From Minisyncoccota bacterium (GTDB lineage Bacteria; Patescibacteriota; Minisyncoccia; Phycocordibacterales; CSBR16-119): DNA of 64,000 nucleotides. The stretch covers positions 17,595-81,594 of the forward strand of contig JAWKSM010000003.1 in the NCBI GenBank assembly GCA_041389065.1, written 5' to 3'. A program made the position numbers and the translations under genes. The notes under the pieces were generated by a model, which searched no databases, was not told the origin of the DNA, and saw nothing but the letters and a program-made list of their open reading frames with translations. Position 1 is the first letter of the stretch; each line of letters begins with the position of its first letter. Of this stretch, positions 7,917-50,152 are shown piece by piece.

Positions 7917-9030
7917 TTAAAAAAGATTCGTAATATCACGAAAAGTGATGAAAATCATGAGAGCGATGAGGGCGATAAAACCAACTGAGTTTAACGTGTT
8001 GGTTATTTTAGGAGAAATCCTTCCACCTTTTATTTTTTCGATAATTAAAAACAAAATTCTACCACCATCGAGCGCCGGAAAAGGTAATGTAAGTTTATTA
8101 CACCACAAGATTTATAGAAATGAGCGCAACAAACATCAAAAGATAAACGATTCCTAAATTGCTCGCATCGCCAACCAAAGAAACTATCCCGACAGGTCCA
8201 GTTAAATTTGATACATCCGGGCTCCTACCTTTAAAAGCATCGACAATCAAATTCCAAAGCCCGGCAGTAATTTGCCAAATCATATCGCCCGCAACTTTAA
8301 ACTTATACCCTTTGAAAACGGCGGCTTGTAAATTCCAACTTTTGAATTCCAACCCCACAGCTTGTTTACCTCTCGATTTCAAAATCTCCATAATATAAAT
8401 ATTTTTTCATAACATTTCCATCTCTTTATATCAAGCTCGATGATGTCGCCCTCTTTACATTTTCAAATGATCATCTGTCAGTGAATCAAAAAGAGGCTCC
8501 TGCCAAGTTACAGATCTGATACTGTCACCAACAGAAATACCTGCGTCATCAGCCGGAGAATCTTTTACAACTTCTGTGATTATGTTTTGAACATTAATAA
8601 TATTAATCACCTTCATATGAAGAATCGACAGAAGAAGGCAGACCGATAAAAACAGAAACCAGGATTACGAACCAAGCAAAATAAAATTAAAAAGCGGGAC
8701 CAGCGAACATAACGCTAGCTTGGGCAAATTTTGACTTGCTTGTCAGAGCAACACTTTTGTTTTCACCGTTTAAAGATTCACTTGCCCGAACTTCTTCAGC
8801 GGGCAGATCATCTGGATCTTCACCAAAAATTTTTACAAATCCCCCAAAAGGAATCCAGTTTAAAGTAAAAAGTGTTCCTTTTTCTAAACAAAAAATCCCT
8901 TTGCACGCGGAGGATAACCTAAGCCAAACTCATCGACCCTAATTCCCCATTTTTTTGCAACAATAAAATGACCGTATTCGTGAACGATTATCAAAACTGC
9001 AAGTATTAGTATGAAAATTATTACAGACAT
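7917..9030 (-). pseudogene. rseP: RIP (site-2) zinc metalloprotease RseP; multiply frame-broken as sequenced
   Basis: N-terminus AVLIIVHEYGHFIVAKKWG carries the HExxH motif (8940-9030). A PDZ-like piece, EVVKDSPADDAGISVGDSI, lies at ~8460-8640. C-terminal fragments read GPVGIVSL... and FPALDGGRILF.... Confidence 0.8.
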
Positions 9031-9033
9031 TAT

Positions 9034-9582
9034 TTAATAAGAACCATAGATTCTTTTGACCAAAATATCTTCAAGAATCTTGTTTGTATCGTCGACTTGT
9101 TTTTGAACTTCTGCTTTTGCAAACTTAATATCATCTTCCGATGTTCCACCTTCTCCTTCTTTTTGCATCAATATCTTTCATTGCTGATTCTCTTCTTTCT
9201 CTACAGAAACACGAGCGTCTTCTAGTTTGCCTTTTAAAACTTTTACAAGCTTCTCTCTTGTCTCTCCTGTGAGCTGAGGGAAAATTACTCGCAACCCTGC
9301 GTCGTCTGTTGCAACAGAAAGACCAATATCAGAAGCGATAATTCCATTTTCGATTTCTTTAGCTGACTTTATCCCAAGGAACAACTCGAAGAGTTTTAGG
9401 ATCTTCTATAGAAATAGAAGCGACGTTTTTAATAGGTTGACGTGTTCCATAAGAGTCAACTGTGATTCCGTCCATAGAACAGATGGATTTGCCTGACCAG
9501 TATAAAGAAGAATATTCTTTTTTAAGCCAATCTGTGACTTTTACCAGGTTCTCTTCTTTAAAAAATATTTGAATTGTATACC
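9034..9582 (-). pseudogene. frr: ribosome recycling factor; frame-broken as sequenced
   Basis: Fragments read SMDGITVDSYGTRQPIKNV, GLRVIFPQLTGETREKLVKVLKGKLEDARVSV and KAEVQKQVDDTNKILEDIL, spread over different frames. Confidence 0.8.
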
Positions 9583-9604
9583 ATAAAAATATAGTAACAA
9601 GATT

Positions 9605-10310
9605 TTAAAGAAAAGAATATAGCAGCCCACGTGCCAAAATCCTAAAAAGTCAACGCCAACGTCTCCAAAAGATTTTTTGACCGACGCACCTTGGTCGTGA
9701 ACATAGTCTTTAATTTTCCAAATAAGTTGCGAATATCGAACTCTTCCTGTTTTCTTTTTTTGAAACTAACTTTCTAATTCATTCAAAAATAAAACCACGT
9801 AAACTTTTAACGAAGTTGTATTTTCTTCTTTTTTTAAACTTTTTAATTATTTTTGAAACAATCGATAATCTTTCTTTCTTTCTCTTTACTCAAAAAATCT
9901 TTCGCAAGTTTTTCTAATTCTGTTTTTTCTGACAAACTTTCTGTTTTTAAAATAAAAGTCTCGATTTTAAGGTATCAATCAAAATAGAGGTTATTGGAGT
10001 AACAATAAAAAAATGAACGTTTGGCGTCGGCTCTTCCAAAACTTTCAAAAGTGCATTTTGTTAATTCTCTTGAAAAATATTTTGTAGAAATTAAAATTAT
10101 TTTTTTGCCTTCCCAGAAAAGATTTTTGAGATTGAAACTTTTCACCTCTGGCGTCTTCAATACTGAAAGTGTCTGTTTCTTTTAAGAAAGTCAGGGTTGC
10201 CGGAAGTTTTAAATCCAAAGCTTTCCAGAACAGAAATAATTTCCGGCAAAAGAGAAAGTTCCGACTCAATCAAATAAGCGATGTAAATTTTTATTATCGA
10301 GTGTAAACAT
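9605..10310 (-). pseudogene. holB: DNA polymerase III delta-prime-like subunit; frame-broken as sequenced
   Basis: Reverse translation gives NALLKVLEEPTPNVHFFIVTPITSILIDTLKSRL, the clamp-loader sensor region. It is flanked by out-of-frame pieces. Confidence 0.7.
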
Positions 10311-10319
10311 AATTAACGT

Positions 10320-11327
10320 TTAGCACACCGAACGTTTGTATGTATCCAAGTGCTCCAAGGCAATACCGGTTCCTTTTACAACACAGAAAGCGGATCGTCG
10401 GCAAGTCTCGCCTACTCCCAGTTCTTCGGTAAACAAGTTCTGGTAAATTTCTTGAAGCATCGAAGATCCTCCCGTCATGATTATCCCTTGATCAATTATA
10501 TCACTTGCCAGCTCTGGAGGAGTTTCTTGCAAACATCTTTAATAGCTTTTATGATAAGTTTCAATTCTTTGTCGATCGCTTGAACGATTTCGCTCTGTTG
10601 TAATTCTGGGCAGTTCTTGTAGCAAACCTTGAACAAAATCTCGTCCTTTAATAGTCGCCACCAAAGCGGCCTCTTCCAAAGTTATCGCTGAACCAATTTT
10701 AATTTTCACCTGTTCTGCAGTTCGGTCGCCAATAGCCAAGTTAAAAGTTTTTTTAATATAGTCGGCGATAGCATGATCGATTTTGTTTCCAGCACACTTC
10801 ACTGAATTTGCCGCAACAATACCGCCAAGAGAAATAACCGCCACGTCTGTTGTTCCACCGCCAATATCCACCACCATGTGACCTTTCGATTCGTGAATTG
10901 GAATTCCGGCACCAATAGCCGCCAAGATTGGCTCTTTAACAACATATGCATTTTTCGCACCAGCTTTGATCGCTGCTTCAACCACCGCTCGACGTTCTGT
11001 CGAAGTCACGCCCGCCGGAACAGAAATCATCACTTCTGGTTTTATAATATTGAAACCAAGCGCTTTATTCATAAAATATCGAAGCATGGCTTCTGTCACA
11101 CGATAATCAGCAATAACACCATCTTTCATCGGACGATACGCGATAATATTTTCTGGAGTTCGTCCAATCATTTGCTTTGCCTCAAGACCAATAGCGAGAA
11201 TTTTATTATCTTGCTCAGACACAGCCACAACAGCCGGCTCGTTTAAAACAATTCCTTTTCCAGGAACAAAAACAAGCGTATTTGCAGTCCCAAGATCTAT
11301 TCCTAATTTCTTGCTAAAAAATCCCAT
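10320..11327 (-). CDS. mreB: rod shape-determining protein MreB, with local frame breaks in the C-terminal third
   Basis: LGIDLGTANTLVF...VVDIGGGTTDVAVISLGG is the actin-fold core. The C-terminus TPPELASDIIDQGIIMTGGSS lies in a second ORF (10320..10532). Between them an alternate frame reads SEIVQAIDKELKLIIKAIKDV. Confidence 0.9.
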
Positions 11328-29916: not shown

Positions 29917-30169
29917 CGATCTTGGTTTTATGCTAGCGGGCCTCACTACAAGCGTAGGTTTGCCATAGCCAGGAAAGGCCTAAAATAAGCCTCTTTTGGC
30001 TATGGCAAAGCAAGTAACTTATAAAAGAAATCTGGTGTGATATTACTATTTAATTTTAGATTAGTCAAGTATTTGTTACCCTGAGTCATTACTCGGAAAC
30101 CCACGGTTTTCCGACGGCTTCGCCTGCCTTCCTCCACGGAAAAACAAATGATGTCCCGACCCCTTTCGT

Positions 30170-30245
30170 CCCCGTAGGGTCACAGCTTCTTGACAGTAAA
30201 AATCGCCTTAATGGCGATTTTTACTGAAGCTGTGACCCTACGGGG
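30170..30245. repeat. nested inverted repeat that includes an antisense copy of the tRNA-Glu 3' end
   Basis: CCCCGTAGGGTCACAGCTTC (30170-30189) is the reverse complement of 30226-30245, which covers the last 13 nt of tRNA-Glu plus 7 nt of trailer. The inner hairpin is AGTAAAAATCGCC-TTAAT-GGCGATTTTTACT. Confidence 0.9.
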
Positions 30246-30304
30246 AATCGAACCCCGATTCTCACATTGAAAACGTGATGTCCTAACCGTTAGACGATAG
30301 GGCC
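30233..30304 (-). tRNA. tRNA-Glu (UUC)
   Basis: GGCCCTATCGTCTAACGGTTAGGAC... The anticodon loop is TTTTCAA and the T-loop is GGTTCGATTCC. The acceptor stem pairs over 7 bp with one G-U. CCA is not encoded. Confidence 0.9.
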
Positions 30305-31029
30305 ATTTATTAAATTGGAAACGAGAAAAGTATATCATTTTTTTATTTTGTGGCAAGAAAAGTGCCCTCGTCGATTACAGCGGGGCAGAGTTGGGTTAAT
30401 GGTTTCTTAAACCAAAACCTTTGAACGTTTCTTCGTAAGCCTCACGGGAGACAGTAGCTCACATCGAACAAGGCTTTTGTTGTGGATCACAACACGAACA
30501 GCGCGAATGTTATTCATCTTGATCTCGGCGCCGTTATAGAAAATGCGTGACCTCTTATCAACATAGAAGATAGATGCCATACCAGCATTATGCGTCGATC
30601 AAGTGAAATCAGGGGATCGTCTTCGCGATCCAACAAGTCCATTGTATATTGATGGCGAGAAGTGAATATTTGGACATTGTCGAGATATCATATCCATTTC
30701 AGCAGACGGAGGGAGTGCACTTTGGCTTGAGGCTGATACACGATGAAGGACCTCAGGTTCCTTCAACTTTTGCGAGTTAAACTTGTTGAGTAGCCCGGCG
30801 TGCCGTGACGTAACCCTTTGAAAGATACACTACTTCTTTAGGTTGCATGTTGGTTGGTTTGTTTTGGTGAACTTCCAGAATATAAACTACCATTTTTTCA
30901 AATTAAGTCAAATAGATTGAGTTTATAAAAATAATGTTGTATCTTTATAAAATAATTGCACGGTTAGACTCTCCGCTCGTAATAAGTTTTACGTTCGGGC
31001 AAGAATTGGTAGACTAACCGTAAAATAAT

Positions 31030-31102
31030 GCGCGGTTAGCTCAGTTGGTAGAGCGACTCATTGACGTTGAGTAGGCCAGGGGTTCGAATCCCTTATCGCG
31101 CA
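31030..31102 (+). tRNA. tRNA-Val (GAC)
   Basis: GCGCGGTTAGCTCAGTTGGTAGAGC... The anticodon arm is ACTCA-TTGACGT-TGAGT and the T-arm is AGGGGTTCGAATCCCTT. Confidence 0.9.
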
Positions 31103-31187
31103 CATAAAATAGTTTAACCAGAACACGCAGTGTTCTGGTCTTAATTTTAAACACATGGTTTTTCAAATATAGCTTTATACTATAGAC

Positions 31188-41576: not shown

Positions 41577-43046
41577 ATGCCAAATATTCAAGATATTTTC
41601 GATTCATTTCCTAAAAAAATGACCTTGTCAGAAGGTGATAAAAATTGGATTACAAAAGCGTTCAATTTTGCAGAAAAATCACACAAGGGACAAACAAGAG
41701 CAAGCGGTGAACCATATTTCAACCACGTTTTTGAAGTTGCAAAAACTTTAGCAAAACTTGGAATGGATGCAAAAACGGTTGTGGCGGGAATTTTGCACGA
41801 CACAATAGAAGACACTCCAGCAACAGAAGAAGATATCGAAGAAGAATTTGGAAAAGAAGTTTTGTTTTTGGTAAATGGTGTTACAAAACTTGGAACTCTA
41901 AAATACAGAGGACGTGAAAGACACGTTGAATCTTTAAGAAAGTTTTTTATAGCGATGGCAGAAGATGTCAGAGTTATTATCATCAAACTTGCTGACAGAC
42001 TTCACAATGTCTCAACTTTAAAATATCTAAAACCAGAAAAAGCAAAACGAATAGCGCTCGAAACTATCGAGATCCACGCGCCACTTGCCAACAGACTTGG
42101 TATGTGGAAATTAAAAGGTCAGCTTGAAGACTTTGCCTTCCCTTTTGCTTTTCCAAAAGAAGCCGAAGACTTGGATAAAATTTTAAAAACAAAAAGCAAA
42201 GCAGATCAAAAATATCTTGACCAAGTTTATAAATCTTTGCAAAAAGAACTTGTAAAAAACAACGTAAAGACAATCGAGATAAGTTATCGAGTAAAAGGTT
42301 TGTATAGTTTATACAAAAAACTTCAAGATAAAAATATGGATATAGACAAGATTTTTGATCTTGTTGCACTTCGAGTTATTGTGCCGACTGTGGAAGATTG
42401 CTACAGAGTTCTTGGGATTATTCATGGATCTTGGACACCAATCCCTGGAAGGATAAAAGATTTTATCGCTCTTCCAAAACCAAACGGATACAAAAGTCTT
42501 CACACAACAATCTTCACAGGAAATGGTGGAATTGCGGAAATTCAAATCAGAACGCCGGAAATGCACGAACAAGCCGAACACGGAGTTGCTTCATATTTTG
42601 CTTATAAGGAAAATGTCTTTGACGGAAATGAAGGAAATTCAAGTCTTGGTTGGATTGAACAATTTAAAGAATTACAAAAAAATGTTTCGAACCCAGACAA
42701 CTTTTTGAAAAATCTAAAAATTGATTTCTTTTCAAAAAGAATTTTCGTTTTCACGCCACAAGGTGATGTTATTGATCTTCCAGATGAATCAAACGCTATC
42801 GACCTGGCATATGCTGTTCACTCAGATATTGGAAATCACATAACTGGCGCGAGAATAAATGGAAAATTTACGAGTATGTATACCAAGTTAAAAAACGGAG
42901 ATATTGTTGAAATTGATACAAGCGACAAGTCACATCCAACAAGTAAATGGCTCGACACAGCAAAAACAACTCTAGCAAGACGACATATTAAAAAATATCT
43001 CGACGACAATAGTTTGATAAACAAATTTATGAACAAGTTTAAATAG
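41577..43046 (+). CDS. rel: bifunctional (p)ppGpp synthetase/hydrolase (RelA/SpoT homolog)
   Basis: HD domain (HDTIEDT), synthetase region (ALRVIV...YKSLHTTI...EIQIRT), and TGS domain (FVFTPQGDVIDLP). Confidence 0.9.
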   Translation: MPNIQDIFDSFPKKMTLSEGDKNWITKAFNFAEKSHKGQTRASGEPYFNHVFEVAKTLAKLGMDAKTVVAGILHDTIEDTPATEEDIEEEFGKEVLFLVNGVTKLGTLKYRGRERHVESLRKFFIAMAEDVRVIIIKLADRLHNVSTLKYLKPEKAKRIALETIEIHAPLANRLGMWKLKGQLEDFAFPFAFPKEAEDLDKILKTKSKADQKYLDQVYKSLQKELVKNNVKTIEISYRVKGLYSLYKKLQDKNMDIDKIFDLVALRVIVPTVEDCYRVLGIIHGSWTPIPGRIKDFIALPKPNGYKSLHTTIFTGNGGIAEIQIRTPEMHEQAEHGVASYFAYKENVFDGNEGNSSLGWIEQFKELQKNVSNPDNFLKNLKIDFFSKRIFVFTPQGDVIDLPDESNAIDLAYAVHSDIGNHITGARINGKFTSMYTKLKNGDIVEIDTSDKSHPTSKWLDTAKTTLARRHIKKYLDDNSLINKFMNKFK

Positions 43047-43085
43047 AGCTTACCCTGGGGTAAGCTCTATTTATATACAGAGGAG

Positions 43086-43538
43086 TCACCTCCTCATTGG
43101 TTCATCTAGTATCTCCTTGAAGTATGGCAGATCTCTCGTTTCTACAACAATACCACTTTCTTCATAGGGGCGCTTTTCTTCCGGATATAACGGAAGTGCG
43201 GACAATAAGTACATCAACTCATCTGGCATGGACTTGCGTGTAGCCAACACACCATCAAAGTATGAAAGATCGAAATCAAGATCGTTCAGCACCTTCATAA
43301 CCGCTTCATGTTTCTCCAGACTAAAAAGTCGGAAATGCACGGGAGAAACGGTGTGGAAATAGAATCCCTCTGGAGATATTAGGATTCTATCATCATACCC
43401 ATCACAGAGCATGATTCTGTCCTTCCTTCCAGCCTCCAAGTGATACATTGCTCCACCATCACGGTATTTGATATCAAGAGCATTACAGATAGAGTAAATA
43501 TCTCCCGCGGAAACAGAAATCAGGCTTCTCTTTTTCAT
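43086..43538 (-). CDS. hypothetical protein (GC-rich orphan)
   Basis: 150-aa ORF with GC-richer composition and no recognised motif. Confidence 0.55.
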   Translation of the reverse strand: MKKRSLISVSAGDIYSICNALDIKYRDGGAMYHLEAGRKDRIMLCDGYDDRILISPEGFYFHTVSPVHFRLFSLEKHEAVMKVLNDLDFDLSYFDGVLATRKSMPDELMYLLSALPLYPEEKRPYEESGIVVETRDLPYFKEILDEPMRR

Positions 43539-43647
43539 GACGTTAAGGTTTGTCTTGTTTAGGCTAAAGATTATATTTATTAAGCAATTTTGTCAATAAT
43601 TACAGAGCCGGCGCAAAGAGGGTGCGCGCCTTTTAAAGTTTAAAAAC

Positions 43648-44834: not shown

Positions 44835-44922
44835 TGCCGGAAGAGAGAATCGAACTCTCACATCTTGCGATACACGATTTTGAGTTGCGTCTACCGCTGT
44901 ATTCAAATTGCGCCATTCCGGC
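44835..44922 (-). pseudogene. degenerate tRNA-Leu(CAA) paralog (D-loop insertion, broken anticodon stem)
   Basis: The 3' 54 nt are identical to the neighbouring tRNA-Leu. The 5' part reads GCCGGAATGGCG-CAATTTGAATACAGC-GGTAGACGCAA, so the 5' strand of the anticodon stem is lost. Confidence 0.7.
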
Positions 44923-44944
44923 AATTTAACGATTTTTTAATTTG

Positions 44945-45026
44945 TGCCGGAAGAGAGAATCGAACTCTCACATCTTGCGATACACGATTTTGAGTCGTGC
45001 GCGTCTACCAATTCCGCCATTCCGGC
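44945..45026 (-). tRNA. tRNA-Leu (CAA)
   Basis: GCCGGAATGGCGGAATTGGTAGACGCG... The anticodon arm is CACGA-CTCAAAA-TCGTG. It has a long variable arm and the T-arm GAGAGTTCGATTCTCTC. Confidence 0.9.
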
Positions 45027-45096
45027 AACACCTTATTAAATTTTGATTAACAAAACAATATTACTTTAAGTTTAGGTTATTGTCTAGAAAAAAGTA

Positions 45097-45124
45097 GGGC
45101 TCGGTCACCTGCGTAACCGAGCCC
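45097..45124 (-). terminator. intrinsic terminator on the minus strand
   Basis: GGGCTCGGT-(10-nt loop)-ACCGAGCCC, followed on the minus strand by CTACTTTTTT. Confidence 0.7.
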
Positions 45125-45327
45125 CTGACACCATGTGAACTAAACCACCAAACCACAAAACACACGGCATCGAGTACGACGTACCTGAGGCCTAGCCGTA
45201 CCTGTGCTTTTCCTCATCAGCAATTGCCCTGTTCTCGGTCTTACCGAAAGCAATCACCAACCTGGAAGAAGCGTTTCTCTTTCACAAGATTACAAATATA
45301 TCGAAATAAAGTCAAGTAAAAACATAA

Positions 45328-45354
45328 GCACCCACGCAATTCTTGCGTGGGTGC
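45328..45354 (-). terminator. 12-bp perfect hairpin; candidate minus-strand terminator or processing site
   Basis: GCACCCACGCAA-TTC-TTGCGTGGGTGC. On the minus strand TTATGTTTTTA follows. Confidence 0.5.
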
Positions 45355-45831
45355 TCTTCCGTCGACATGAAGTCGACAAGGTTTCGCCAGGTGTGTGGTA
45401 ACACTCTGCGGAGACCTTATTACGGATGTGTAGGTGGTAGAATGACCACCAAGGCATTTGGCACCTTACAGGGCGCCCCCATAAAAAATGTACGACTTGT
45501 TGTTTGAACAATAAATGATCAGCCTCATCTTGAAAACGTAATAACCAGAGAAAACACCGGCTTGCACACAGACAGCAGGTTTGTACTTGATAAGTTTGCT
45601 GCGGTCGTGCACTTACTTTGTTTTTCGAACTGGCGAGAACAATCCAGACCCGGTAAAGGTTTGTTAGTGACGTCGTCTTAGTGAGCGTTTGCTCGAGCGA
45701 CCCATTTCACTTCATTTTTTCGGGTTTGTGTTCTGCTGGAGATCTTGATGAAGAGATCAAATCGGTTCGAATCAATTATTTCATATTTGTCTGACATTTG
45801 TCAAGCACTTTAAAATCTGTATTATAAAAAC

Positions 45832-46659
45832 ATGTTAAAACCCAAGATATACGTAGTTTGTGGACCAACAGCCACAGGAAAATCAGATCACGCTGTAGAA
45901 CTCGCACTTAAAGTAAACGGCGAAATTATTTCCGCCGATTCTCGCCAGGTCTATCGCGGGATGGATATTGGAAGCGGGAAAATAATCGAGGAAGAAATGA
46001 AAGGCGTTCCTCACCATATGCTGAATATAAAAAACCCAGATGAAGATTTTTCTGTCGAAGAATTCCAAAGACTATCTTTTGAAAAAATTGAAGATATTGT
46101 CTCTCGCGGAAAAACTCCAATACTTTGCGGCGGTACAGGTTTCTATATCCAATCAATCACAGAGAATATAATTTTTGAAAATATTCCAAAAAACCAAAAA
46201 CTCCGAGACGAACTCGAAGAAAAAAGTGTCGAAGAGCTTAAAGAAACTTTAGCTAAATTCCCTATCGAAAAAGGTGCAAAAGTAGACACAGAAAACAAAC
46301 GCCGACTGATCCGTGCAATAGAAATCGGCACGCACATGGGAAAAATTGCCTGCATTAAAAAGGGTCCGGAAAAATACGACTTTGAATTTATCTACCTCGA
46401 CTTCCCTGACGAAGTTTTAAAGGAAAGAATAAATATTCGTCTTCAAAAAAGATTTGAAGCTGGAATGATAGACGAAGTTAGAAATCTTCATGAAAAGGGT
46501 CTAAGTTGGAAAAAACTCGAAGACTTTGGTTTGGAATACAAATACATCGCAGAATTTCTGCAAAACAAAATTTCCGAAAAAGACCTCCACGAAATCCTAA
46601 AAACAAAAATCTGGCAATATGCGAAAAGACAGAGGACGTGGTTTAAGAAATATTTATAA
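45832..46659 (+). CDS. miaA: tRNA dimethylallyltransferase
   Basis: VVCGPTATGKS (P-loop) and ISADSRQVYRGMDIGSGK. Confidence 0.9.
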   Translation: MLKPKIYVVCGPTATGKSDHAVELALKVNGEIISADSRQVYRGMDIGSGKIIEEEMKGVPHHMLNIKNPDEDFSVEEFQRLSFEKIEDIVSRGKTPILCGGTGFYIQSITENIIFENIPKNQKLRDELEEKSVEELKETLAKFPIEKGAKVDTENKRRLIRAIEIGTHMGKIACIKKGPEKYDFEFIYLDFPDEVLKERINIRLQKRFEAGMIDEVRNLHEKGLSWKKLEDFGLEYKYIAEFLQNKISEKDLHEILKTKIWQYAKRQRTWFKKYL

Positions 46660-47119
46660 AATATTTTTCTTTTTTTATAATTTTATTAATTTGATTGGCG
46701 GCAAAAGAAAGATCTTTGATTGATGGCAAATCTTTATATCCCCTCAATATTGATAATATAAAATCATCCTTAAAATATTCCATTGATTTATTTTTAAAAT
46801 ATGGGTTTATCTTTTCTATAGGATTAAGCACTTTTTGTTCTAAATTAAGATTATTAATTTTATTATATTCTTTTACTAATTTAATTAAATCGTGTCCGAA
46901 ATTTTTTATTTTCTTTTTAGAATAACCCTTAGAAAGTAAAATTGATTTCAAACCAAGCTCTATAGATACACATAATAAATAAAAATTTACTATGTGTATC
47001 TCAGTTTTAGGGTGATAATTATTAGAAGACCCCAAGAAATCTTCTGAAAGCCTGGCAAGTGCATAAGGAACGATATTTAAACGAACTACTGGCATTTTTA
47101 AAATAACATCCTTTTTCAT
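46643..47119 (-). CDS. HEPN-like domain protein
   Basis: All-helical, 158 aa. LLCVSIELGLKSILLSKGYSKKKIKNFGHDLIKLVKEY resembles the HEPN pattern E.aLKa.l...G....k..HdL..L. No canonical Rx4-6H motif is present. Confidence 0.5.
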   Translation of the reverse strand: MKKDVILKMPVVRLNIVPYALARLSEDFLGSSNNYHPKTEIHIVNFYLLCVSIELGLKSILLSKGYSKKKIKNFGHDLIKLVKEYNKINNLNLEQKVLNPIEKINPYFKNKSMEYFKDDFILSILRGYKDLPSIKDLSFAANQINKIIKKEKYFINIS

Positions 47120-47131
47120 ACTATATAGAAA

Positions 47132-47416
47132 TTACACCTTTAAGTACTCTTTTTGAAATCTTTTTATTGCCTCTTTTGTTTTAAGTATAATTATAGCCAC
47201 AACATCCTCTTCTCTTTTAAAAGATAGAGATATCTCAGGTTTTATATTAAAAAATCTAGCAATCTTCATAGATCTTATAGTCTCTCTATAATTCGAGTCT
47301 TCTGACAAAACAAAAACCATTGAAGATAGAACTTTAGCTTCTAGTGATTCATCATCTTTTGGATTGTTTTTACCGTTTAAAATAAAGTGTTCGTAATCTA
47401 CGTCAACCTCCCTCAA
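47132..47416 (-). CDS. small hypothetical protein upstream of the HEPN-like gene
   Basis: 94-aa ORF that is very AT-rich. The start is uncertain: a TTG lies inside a GAGGGAGG-like stretch. Confidence 0.35.
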   Translation of the reverse strand: MREVDVDYEHFILNGKNNPKDDESLEAKVLSSMVFVLSEDSNYRETIRSMKIARFFNIKPEISLSFKREEDVVAIIILKTKEAIKRFQKEYLKV

Positions 47417-47551
47417 TCTATAAATTAAATAAACTCTTGAACAAAATGCGGAATATTTTACTTTAATAAAAACATAAAATTACAAAATAATACTATATTT
47501 CATAATTGGTATATACATAGCATTTGATTTTTGAATACTTATAAATCTTTG

Positions 47552-48453: not shown

Positions 48454-49175
48454 TCGTAAGCCACTATAGCGGCAGAAACAGAAGCGTTTAGAGATTCGAC
48501 ATCACGTTCCCATTGGAATTCTTAACACATAATCACAAGATTTACCGACAGAATCACGCAAACCTTTGACCTTCATTTCCGACAACAATAGCCATTGGAG
48601 AATCGTATTTTTCATCCCAGACACTTTTCCCCTCCAGAAGAATCGAGCCCTGCAACCCAAAATTTATTTTCCTTTAGTTTTTTAATAGCGTCGTTAATAT
48701 TTGAAACGATTATAATCGGAACTTTAGTGATTGTCCCTGCAGAAGTTTTGAAACTGTTCCGTTGACCGGAGCTTGGCGGTGTTTAGAAAGTATAACTCCA
48801 GAGGCGCCAGACGCAGCCGCAACACGGATAACAGCACCTACGTTGTGCGGATCTTCAAGTTCGTCCATAACAAACACAAGAGGATTTGTTTCAGGATCCA
48901 AAGTTTCAACCCAGTCATGAAATCCACGCCTTTAAATTCTTAGCTCAGCTACGACACCTTGATCGTTTACATCACCAACCAAAGATTCAAGTTTGTTTTT
49001 TGGAGATTTGATAAAAGGAATTTTGTGCTTTCGAACATAGTTTTTAAGCTCTTCAAAAACTTCATCTTTTACGGCATCGTGAACAACAACCTGCGATACG
49101 TTTTTCGGGTCGCAAAAAGAGCCTCTTCAACAGGCTTTCTTCCGTAGATATAGAAATCCTGATTTCTTTATACAT
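48440..49175 (-). pseudogene. rlmB: SpoU/TrmH-family rRNA 2'-O-methyltransferase (RlmB-like); frame-broken as sequenced
   Basis: Fragments read IYIYGRKPVEEALF, DQGVVAE, ELEDPHNVGAVIRVAAASGASGVIL and ESLNASVSAAIVAYEW, spread over several frames. The ends are approximate. Confidence 0.7.
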
Positions 49176-49254
49176 AACGACACAATACAGAAAAATTTGT
49201 TTTTTTGGCAAGGTATCATTGAAATACAATTTTATTGTTATTGTATGAAAGTTC

Positions 49255-49337
49255 GCGTCGGTGGCGGAGTGGTCAATCGCAATTGACTGTAAATCAATCG
49301 CCTTCGGGCTACGCAGGTTCGAATCCTGCTCGGCGCA
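49255..49337 (+). tRNA. tRNA-Tyr (GUA)
   Basis: GCGTCGGTGGCGGAGTGGTCAATCGC... The anticodon arm is ATTGA-CTGTAAA-TCAAT. It has a long variable arm and the T-arm GCAGGTTCGAATCCTGC. Confidence 0.9.
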
Positions 49338-49349
49338 TAAAATAAAAAA

Positions 49350-49375
49350 GAAGGCCGCGCGTAAGGGCGGCCTTC
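49350..49375. terminator. bidirectional intrinsic terminator
   Basis: GAAGGCCGC-(8-nt loop)-GCGGCCTTC flanked by AAAAAA and TTTTT. Confidence 0.75.
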
Positions 49376-49402
49376 TTTTTATTTCACTTTATAGTCTCTA
49401 AA

Positions 49403-50152
49403 TCAACCTCTGTCGAATTCTATTAGCTGTTTTGATCTGAGGTCATAGTGAGCTCTTGAATATGGATTTTCTGACCACTCTAATTTAAATGGATTTAGTT
49501 GATACAAATAAACTGCAGATTTTAGCGGACGGCCCGGATAAATGGTAAAGAACCCATTTTTGCTGATTTTCAATATATTCATTTGGAAGTTTAACTTTTC
49601 CATGACTAAGCAGATAAAACATCAAAGTCTTCTTCTAGGTAAAAATTCAAATTGATTCTCCCCCATTTCTCTACCATAGATATCGCAATCATCTTTTATA
49701 TATTTCTGAAACTTTTCATCCTTCTCATATATATCTTTTACTTGTCTTAGAAGAAAATCAAAATCTCTTGTCCCAACATAAAGCTGATTCCAAACCATAT
49801 AATTAAAACCATGTTGAATCTGAAAATCAAGATTATTTTTTTCAACGATTTTTTGAAAAGCATTCTTATGTTGAATAACCTGATGCATAAATGACTTTTT
49901 TAACTCCGGAGCTGGTTTGTCTGAATATAAATACAAAAAATCTCCGTAAATTAAATTAAGTCCTAAAAGAGGCTTGCTAACTTTTGAAGGGTGAAAAATC
50001 CTAACGTAATCAATACAATTTTCAGCTGATTGACCTCCTCCTCCTTGGAAATCTAACTTATTCATCGACAACCCAAACAAAAGCAAACCCTTCTCCGCCG
50101 GAAGCTTATTAATATCGAAGAAAACATTTTTTTCGTCTTTTGGATTACTCAT
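49403..50152 (-). CDS. hypothetical ~250-aa protein interrupted by an in-frame TGA or local indels
   Basis: ORFs 49622..50152 and 49403..49603 are in the same frame, separated by a TGA. Alternate frames across the junction read NFYLEEDFDVL and LLSHGKVKLPNEYIENQQKW. Confidence 0.55.

Follow-up and report, generated by a model that had tools for sequence, protein, structure and literature searches.

The G/U-rich seed of GcvB in Enterobacteria reportedly pairs with C/A-rich mRNA elements, and the RNAs GOLLD and ROOL are often found beside tRNA genes. In the Patescibacteria (Candidate Phyla Radiation, CPR), whose genomes are small and compact, regulatory and structured RNAs appear to be little studied. 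Here, we analyse the spacer between tRNA-Leu(CAA) and miaA at positions 45027-45831 of a 64-kb stretch of contig JAWKSM010000003.1, hereafter the window. Two small non-coding RNA genes, so far unannotated and without a match among described RNA families, most likely lie in this stretch, which has no credible open reading frame (ORF); they are designated RNA1 (~450 nt) and sRNA2 (~195 nt). Comparison with related loci gives good support to sRNA2 as a new, conserved, structured RNA family confined to a Paceibacteria-like clade, although of an ordinary kind, that of stand-alone small RNA (sRNA) genes. The literature searched contained no description of the miaA/tRNA-Leu spacer locus.

The predicted sRNA2 resembles GcvB in being an independent gene of ~200 nt that has a promoter and an intrinsic terminator to itself, and in carrying its best-conserved single-stranded element, which is G/U-rich (UGGUUUGGUGG), in an accessible loop. 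It differs in its lack of sequence or Rfam similarity, in its CPR host and in the absence of target enrichment in the window, and a seed role for the loop is proposed by analogy. With 6S RNA (SsrS), sRNA2 shares a similar size, fast evolution and a stand-alone gene with promoter and terminator, but it would fold as a series of separate hairpins rather than as a rod with a central bubble, and it has no Rfam 6S match. Like GOLLD and ROOL, RNA1 would be several hundred nucleotides long, ORF-free, adjacent to tRNA genes and variable between strains; unlike them, it has no Rfam match at E<=10 and no prophage context, and a conserved ornate structure is not demonstrable for an RNA that has no homologues. 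The length of RNA1 is also similar to that of ribonuclease P (RNase P) RNA, and the plus strand loosely resembles the ACAGAA..CGGCUUA string of the latter. However, RNA1 lacks a GGAAAGUCC-type CR-I element and a covariance-model match, the resemblance sits on the strand that carries neither promoter nor terminator, and RNA1 is not conserved even in the closest relatives.

Organization of the spacer locus

Loci were gathered from species-representative genomes, Joint Genome Institute (JGI) metagenomes and public assemblies via MiaA homologues of 77-95% identity, and are referred to by L numbers. Judged by its MiaA relatives, the host belongs to a Paceibacteria-like group of the Patescibacteria. 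Gene order, relA-parB-tRNA-Leu-spacer-miaA, is the same in ~14 distinct relatives with MiaA 74-95% identical, and every version has an ORF-free spacer of 360-1000 nt between miaA and tRNA-Leu(CAA). On the strand that corresponds to the window's minus strand, each relative's spacer reads as 2-4 units, and a unit comprises a CTTGAC-type promoter, GC-rich hairpins, often with CGUAAG loops, and a strong terminator. Among relatives with long flanks, L006 is the closest, and its relA, parB and miaA are 90-93% identical to the window; MiaA identity is 93% for L006 and 95% for L039. One Logan contig (L001, from SRR32608995) is identical to the window. The features of the locus in the window are the following:

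44944-45026, minus strand: tRNA-Leu(CAA), the conserved anchor of the locus (Rfam, ARAGORN, relatives)
45058-45086, minus strand: predicted promoter of tRNA-Leu(CAA), TAGACA-17-TAATAT, just past the sRNA2 terminator
~45088-45283, minus strand: sRNA2, a predicted structured RNA of ~195 nt, member of a clade-specific family
45088-45125, minus strand: predicted sRNA2 terminator, 13-bp stem (45125-45096) with arms 92% complementary and a U6 tail, tail ACTTTTTT
45287-45315, minus strand: putative sRNA2 promoter read from the sequence, -35 TTGACT (45315-45310), 17-nt spacer, -10 TAATCT (45292-45287)
45316-45356, minus strand: predicted RNA1 terminator, 14-bp GC-rich stem (45356-45326) and U-rich tail (45325-45316), tail ATGTTTTTAC
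~45316-45768, minus strand: RNA1, a predicted non-coding transcript of ~450 nt, its start placed ~7 nt after the -10
45775-45804, minus strand: predicted RNA1 promoter, TTGACA (45804-45799), 18-nt spacer, TG-extended -10 AATAAT (45780-45775), 11 of 12 matches
45798-45825, plus strand: predicted miaA promoter, TTGTCA-16-TATTAT, conserved in L006
45832-46659, plus strand: miaA, transcribed divergently from the spacer RNA units
45204-45401 (plus), 45290-45511 (minus), 45343-45507 (plus) and 45466-45612 (minus): short ORFs, none of them credible

An earlier reading made from the sequence alone (the sequence-only reading) had described 45060-45830 as an ORF-free, GC-rich region, its few ORFs being rich in Cys, Trp, His and Arg and overlapping in antisense. 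This description holds. Between tRNA-Leu(CAA) on the minus strand and miaA on the plus strand, the only ORFs of at least 40 aa are short and overlap each other in sense and antisense, with the composition described. Ten stop-free stretches (at least 45 aa) gave nothing above noise against Pfam, and a phmmer search with the longest stop-free frame (138 aa) returned 0 matches among 1.84 billion protein representatives, so that the decayed protein gene that translated searches might have revealed did not appear. The GC content of the spacer in 200-nt steps is 0.43-0.50, compared with 0.37 across the window and 0.21-0.30 in the sequence immediately following miaA, and is thus high in a relative sense only.

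The two minus-strand terminator hairpins pointed out in that reading are also present, with stems of 14 (RNA1) and 13 (sRNA2) pairs that had both been slightly undercounted, and the TTGAC-type -35 boxes it had placed near 45800 and 45312 were found at the promoter positions listed above. The RNA1 terminator has perfect 13-nt arms at 45327-45339 and 45343-45355. Terminator-like sites in the region number 6, against 1.4 +/- 1.3 in shuffles, and in a consensus scan the minus strand alone carries the promoters and terminators of the RNA units; a GUAA-type loop (CCCUGUAAGG) reads correctly on this strand as well. Both ORF-free segments are therefore enclosed by a predicted promoter and Rho-independent terminator of their own, as stand-alone sRNA genes would be.

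Promoter elements recur in the relatives. The -35 block of the RNA1 promoter is kept in L039, L006, L048, L002, L044, L047, L004, L055 and L005. The same 8 bp (CTTGACAA / TTGTCAAG) serve as -35 boxes of both the RNA1 promoter and the divergent miaA promoter, and through this common box the two promoters may compete. The miaA mRNA is probably leaderless, considering that the -10 (TATTAT) ends 6 nt before the ATG at 45832. The sRNA2 promoter begins just past the RNA1 terminator; its hexamers fall below the threshold of the consensus scan, but its -35 box and spacing are conserved, and CTTGACT with an AT-rich -10 at 16-17 nt is also present in L039, L002, L044, L047, L058 and L014. In L006, the CTTGACT box is kept and the spacing to the -10 is unclear. 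The tRNA promoter block, CTAGACAAT ... AAAGTAAAAT, is conserved in L006, L039, L002, L004 and L014.

sRNA2, a predicted conserved structured RNA

A segment of 127 nt of sRNA2 (window 45077-45203) is 99% identical to L006, compared with 90-93% for the flanking genes, and to judge from such comparisons sRNA2 is under purifying selection. Homologues were found with nhmmer in L039, L006 and L014, and a covariance model of the 3' module matched L058 (E 1.4e-3), L044 (3e-3), L047 (0.03) and L002 (0.06), in all four cases at the syntenic position. The same model gave no match in loci with MiaA at most 51% identical.

The RNAalifold consensus of the window, L039, L006 and L014 consists of a long hairpin, a short helix, a hairpin with a G/U-rich loop and the terminator. 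Across this structure, 93.3% of cells pair, and 12 of the 52 pairs have changed on both sides, compared with 5.1 +/- 1.6 in column shuffles (0 of 500 reach 12) and 1-4 in slid-partner controls. The conservation and compensatory base-pair changes proposed as a check in the sequence-only reading were thus found for the ~200-nt unit. The predicted elements, in 5' to 3' order of the RNA, are:

45216-45261, minus strand: long hairpin (helix 1), arms 45261-45250 / 45227-45216, flanked by conserved single-stranded GAGAACAGGG and GAUGAGGA; 19 pairs, 6 changed on both sides, 93.8% of cells paired
45174-45201, minus strand: middle helix (helix 2), GUACGGC / GUCGUAC, enclosing the conserved loop UAGGCCUCAGGUAC; 8 pairs, 2 changed on both sides, 96.9% paired; variants GUGUGGU/GCCGCAC in L039 and UGUGGC/GUCACA in L014
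45138-45160, minus strand: G/U-rich apical loop UUUUGUGGUUUGGUGGUUUAGUU, closing stem CCGUGUG/CACAUGG, holding the motif UGGUUUGGUG(G)
45096-45125, minus strand: terminator stem (helix 5); 13 pairs, 100% paired, 3 with compensatory changes

The UGGUUUGGUG(G) motif, the G/U-rich element of this loop, was found in 8 loci, namely the window, L006, L002, L044, L047, L058, L004 and the second unit of L014 (L014b). Its position in a predicted hairpin loop follows from the fold for the window and L006, and from reading of the sequences for L058 and L014b. The window copy combines synteny upstream of tRNA-Leu(CAA) with the motif in a predicted loop, which are among the features by which the family is defined here. 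sRNA2 is a mosaic across relatives: L039 has the window's 5' half but differs in the insert that separates middle helix and terminator, and L006 has the window's 3' half and a shorter 5' module.

An ahpC/peroxiredoxin-like gene sits between RNA units in the spacers of L014 (1691-2287, minus strand) and L004, and the sRNA2 promoter falls in the 3' end of this inserted gene. The L004 frame is in several pieces, which may reflect a pseudogene or an assembly error.

RNA1, a strain-specific unit

The proposal of two minus-strand RNAs of ~450 and ~200 nt is supported by the promoter and terminator anatomy and by the modular locus found in ~14 relatives, but the ~450-nt unit fails in conservation. 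RNA1-like sequence (window 45318-45795) was found in none of the fetched loci and recurs only in the identical contig L001, so that its reading as a non-coding RNA rests on anatomy and position in the locus.

No similarity was detected between window 45204-45795 and L006, or between window 45318-45795 and L039. Both relatives match the window down to the common -35 box, where identity ends at 45796; it resumes at 45317 in L039, at the sRNA2 promoter, and at 45203 in L006, inside sRNA2. The slot is occupied in L039 and L006 by an unrelated unit of ~250 nt with its own -10 and, at the position equivalent to the RNA1 terminator, a terminator of different sequence. Given that the 3' domain of this unit is also present in L002, L044, L047, L004 and partly in L048, the L039/L006 type is probably ancestral and the RNA1 of the window a derived allele. 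RNA1 cannot be aligned although it lies next to 99%-identical sequence in a locus with flanks of 90-93% identity, which means that it was replaced by recombination rather than drifted. It is plausible that RNA1 is a strain-specific structured non-coding RNA acquired by recombination.

Searches for more distant relatives of RNA1 gave little. nhmmer found nothing that would make it a diverged copy of the relatives' RNA1 types, and a covariance model built from L049 and L003 does not detect it even with filters off. The 3' third shows weak local similarity to the L049/L004 types (z 3.2-3.6 across 26 comparisons), a lead only. Paralogues or antisense targets of RNA1 were sought in the window, with only short chance-level matches. 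A weak terminator-like site lies within RNA1 (45562..45543), and RNA1 may be one transcript or two.

A third type of unit, RNA-X, with its own terminator, is present in L002 (3422-3605), L044, L047 and L049 and is absent from the window. It carries the motif AUGGCCGAGAYNAAG-YYUGGGUMACACYAGR-CGGAG, has no Rfam match, and a related motif is found in L056 and L058.

Proposed function

On balance, we lean, though not strongly, towards reading the spacer as an island of two minus-strand non-coding RNA genes, each furnished with a separate sigma-70-type promoter and an intrinsic terminator. In the favoured version, the slot would be prone to recombination and its RNAs would be regulators that act in trans or bind proteins. 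Both units would be transcribed from the minus strand. For sRNA2, the most likely mechanism would be that of a trans-acting regulator, whose exposed G/U-rich loop would either base-pair with C/A-rich target RNAs, by analogy with the GcvB seed, or bind a protein. RNA1 would occupy a slot in which promoter and position are shared throughout the clade and the transcribed body is swapped whole between near-identical strains.

Several points weigh against this view. The transcript ends are predictions, and the -10 hexamer of sRNA2 in the window, TAATCT, is weak. The covariation of sRNA2 comes from four sequences, which also supplied the structure under test; the covariance-model E-values of the distant family members are marginal, at 0.03-0.06. 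RNA1, which has no homologue, receives no support from covariation. Folding is likewise of limited help: the whole units fold at z = -4.4 and -4.7, with terminators contributing much, and once the terminators are removed, RNA1 folds slightly better on the plus strand (z = -3.5) than on the minus strand (z = -2.8), and the sRNA2 body alone reaches only z = -1.6 on the minus strand (-0.2 on the plus strand), compared with -2.3 to +0.7 in coding controls. Thermodynamics alone is weak evidence here. The complement of the G/U loop is not enriched over shuffled seeds at the 64 translation-initiation regions of the window, a sample limited to these 64 kb, and it shows no excess in the window as a whole. 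Pairing of the loop with co-resident RNA1 or RNA-X units did not rise above shuffles in 8 loci, and whole-molecule duplex prediction was uninformative.

Alternative explanations

Among the alternatives, an unlikely but not negligible one is that the spacer is mostly non-functional. It would be a recombination or integration hot spot by a tRNA gene in which RNA1, and perhaps the variable sRNA2 modules, are imported junk, with promoters and terminators kept solely for the expression or insulation of miaA and the tRNA. Consistent with this, RNA1 is unique to the strain and cannot be aligned with its counterpart at this slot in genomes whose flanks are ~92% identical, partial or aberrant tRNA-Leu duplicates, typical recombination scars at tRNA genes, flank the locus in many relatives, further strain-specific islets lie nearby (43046-43638 and 46649-47548), and the fold z-scores of the bodies are modest and not strand-specific. 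However, a spacer of this kind is kept in every relative despite the compactness of CPR genomes, and ~1 kb of ORF-free DNA kept clade-wide is unlikely to be idle in genomes so tiny. The RNA1 promoter is strongly conserved and has no role in miaA or tRNA expression, a strong terminator closes each unit, GC lies above the genome background, and sRNA2 shows purifying selection together with compensatory changes. Moreover, no integrase was found, terminal or flanking repeats around RNA1 were searched for and not found, the spacer had no similarity to phage and plasmid collections in the distant mode of blastn, and a scan of viral contigs for two exact patterns was empty. The eroded element suggested in the sequence-only reading is thus not borne out, neither terminal repeats nor phage, plasmid or protein remnants having been found.

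The conserved promoter and slot speak for expression of something there, and the wholesale swapping speaks for either diversifying selection or tolerated junk. A further reading, which we consider doubtful, is that the spacer is a dedicated expression slot for interchangeable structured RNAs, in which RNA1 bodies and sRNA2 halves are swapped by recombination among strains with ~92% identical flanks. The promoters (including the bidirectional one with its common -35), the position and the terminator of each unit would then be the constant parts. Such a slot would imply that non-coding RNAs of an obligate symbiont are under diversifying selection, with possible roles as decoys, antitoxins or guides in phage-host or symbiont-host conflict. 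If the exchange is selective, the locus would represent an unusual diversifying evolution of non-coding RNAs; if it is not, the two units of the favoured island would be an ordinary sRNA pair, useful for annotation. In sRNA2, the analysis yields one concrete new predicted RNA family, whose structure can be tested and whose G/U-rich loop is conserved and exposed; less ordinary is the exchange of putative RNA genes as modules between near-identical strains, which the locus documents.

The view that the region belongs to a long 5' leader or precursor transcript of the tRNA-Leu operon, removed by RNases, instead of forming independent genes, is very improbable. The region does lie immediately upstream of tRNA-Leu(CAA) and the tRNA-like duplicate and on the same strand, but two strong intrinsic terminators separate the tRNA from the upstream promoter, a conserved promoter (45086-45058) belongs to the tRNA itself, and in L048, L049, L056 and L003 the tRNA is on the strand opposite to the RNA units.

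We also considered whether one unit might be a highly divergent RNase P RNA, 6S RNA, signal recognition particle (SRP) RNA or transfer-messenger RNA (tmRNA) missed by the Rfam models, a possibility now largely refuted and of very low probability. The sizes would fit (~450 nt for RNase P RNA or tmRNA, ~195 nt for 6S RNA), none of these RNAs was found by Rfam elsewhere in the window, and the plus-strand string AGAAAACACCGGCTTG (45548-45563) is loosely like the 3' strand of RNase P helix P4. The check proposed in the sequence-only reading, a scan of both strands with Rfam covariance models, was run with all 4227 families of release 15, at the gathering score and then at E<=10 with permissive filters, and matched no family in 45027-45830 at either level; the equivalent regions of 14 related loci gave only tRNAs and noise. 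SRP RNA (helix 8 / domain IV, as the Rfam models score it) had no match at E<=10 here or in the relatives' spacers, and ARAGORN, which looks for a tRNA-like domain with acceptor and T arm and a frame for the tag peptide, called no tmRNA in the window. As their Rfam models define them, RNase P RNA, tmRNA, SRP RNA, 6S RNA, GOLLD and ROOL are excluded, in agreement with the poor fit to the first three that had been noted from the letters. The partial RNase P-like resemblance noted there is a real string, yet it is isolated, lies on the strand without promoter or terminator, and no RNase P model scores on it, these models covering helix P4 and the conserved regions CR-I, CR-IV and CR-V. A housekeeping RNA is not expected to be swapped between strains with 93-95% identical MiaA, and RNase P, as an essential single-copy conserved gene, does not accord with the replacement of RNA1 by unrelated sequence in L039 and L006. 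For sRNA2, three separate hairpins and a terminator are unlike the single rod with central bubble of 6S RNA.

Three other candidates were rejected. A hammerhead is not supported, given that the CUGAUGAG string of sRNA2 is not conserved (CUUAUGAG in L039, GGAUGAG in L014). TIGR arrays, suggested by the literature search, do not fit a region without tandem repeats. An oriC or parS beside parB was considered as well; no parS-like site was found, and DnaA boxes occur at chance level, with none in the region.

That the region encodes small proteins or is a decayed protein gene is barely credible: stop-free stretches reach 138 aa on the minus strand and gene callers gave hypothetical ORFs of 101-173 aa in some relatives' equivalent spacers, but, besides the empty protein searches and the Cys-, Trp-, His- and Arg-rich composition, indels break the frames between relatives, the stop-free frame in sRNA2 continues through the terminator, gene calling on the identical contig L001 gave no ORF in the spacer, and the pattern of substitutions in sRNA2 is one of compensation within helices, not of change at third codon positions.

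Neighbouring features of the window

Downstream of tRNA-Leu(CAA), at a distance of 20 nt, an aberrant tRNA-Leu-like gene lies at 44835-44922 on the minus strand. It matches the real tRNA exactly over its 3' 53 nt, its D-loop is enlarged (GGCGCAAUUUGAAUACAGCGGUAGACGC) and the 5' strand of its anticodon stem is missing; it scores 30.8 bits with Rfam and is not called by ARAGORN. Counterparts are present in L006, L002, L044, L047, L005 and L014, and the copies in relatives that share the odd D-region are either full-length or truncated at the 5' end, some of them lying upstream of the real tRNA. The duplicate may represent a scar of recombination or else a tRNA-like RNA that is conserved. Many independent short-read assemblies, represented by Logan contigs L039-L043 and L050-L054, break at one common place, ~550-650 nt upstream of miaA, and given that the broken contig ends read tRNA-Leu sequence, the near-identical tRNA-Leu duplicates may be the assembly-breaking repeat.

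Between relA and parB, the window has a strain-specific insertion (43046-43638) where L006 has only ~75 nt; its 150-aa ORF (43086-43538, minus strand) has no Pfam or PADLOC match. Downstream of miaA, a low-GC segment (0.21-0.30) at 46643-47548 contains two small ORFs (158 and 94 aa) that match no family, and it is replaced by different unknown genes in each relative, forming another variable islet flanking miaA. A bidirectional terminator is located at 49345-49380. Other stretches without ORFs of at least 80 aa are found at 29947-31187, 48454-49621 and 8392-10538; two of the three surround tRNA genes, with GC of 0.39-0.42, and these stretches may hold further unannotated RNAs or small genes.

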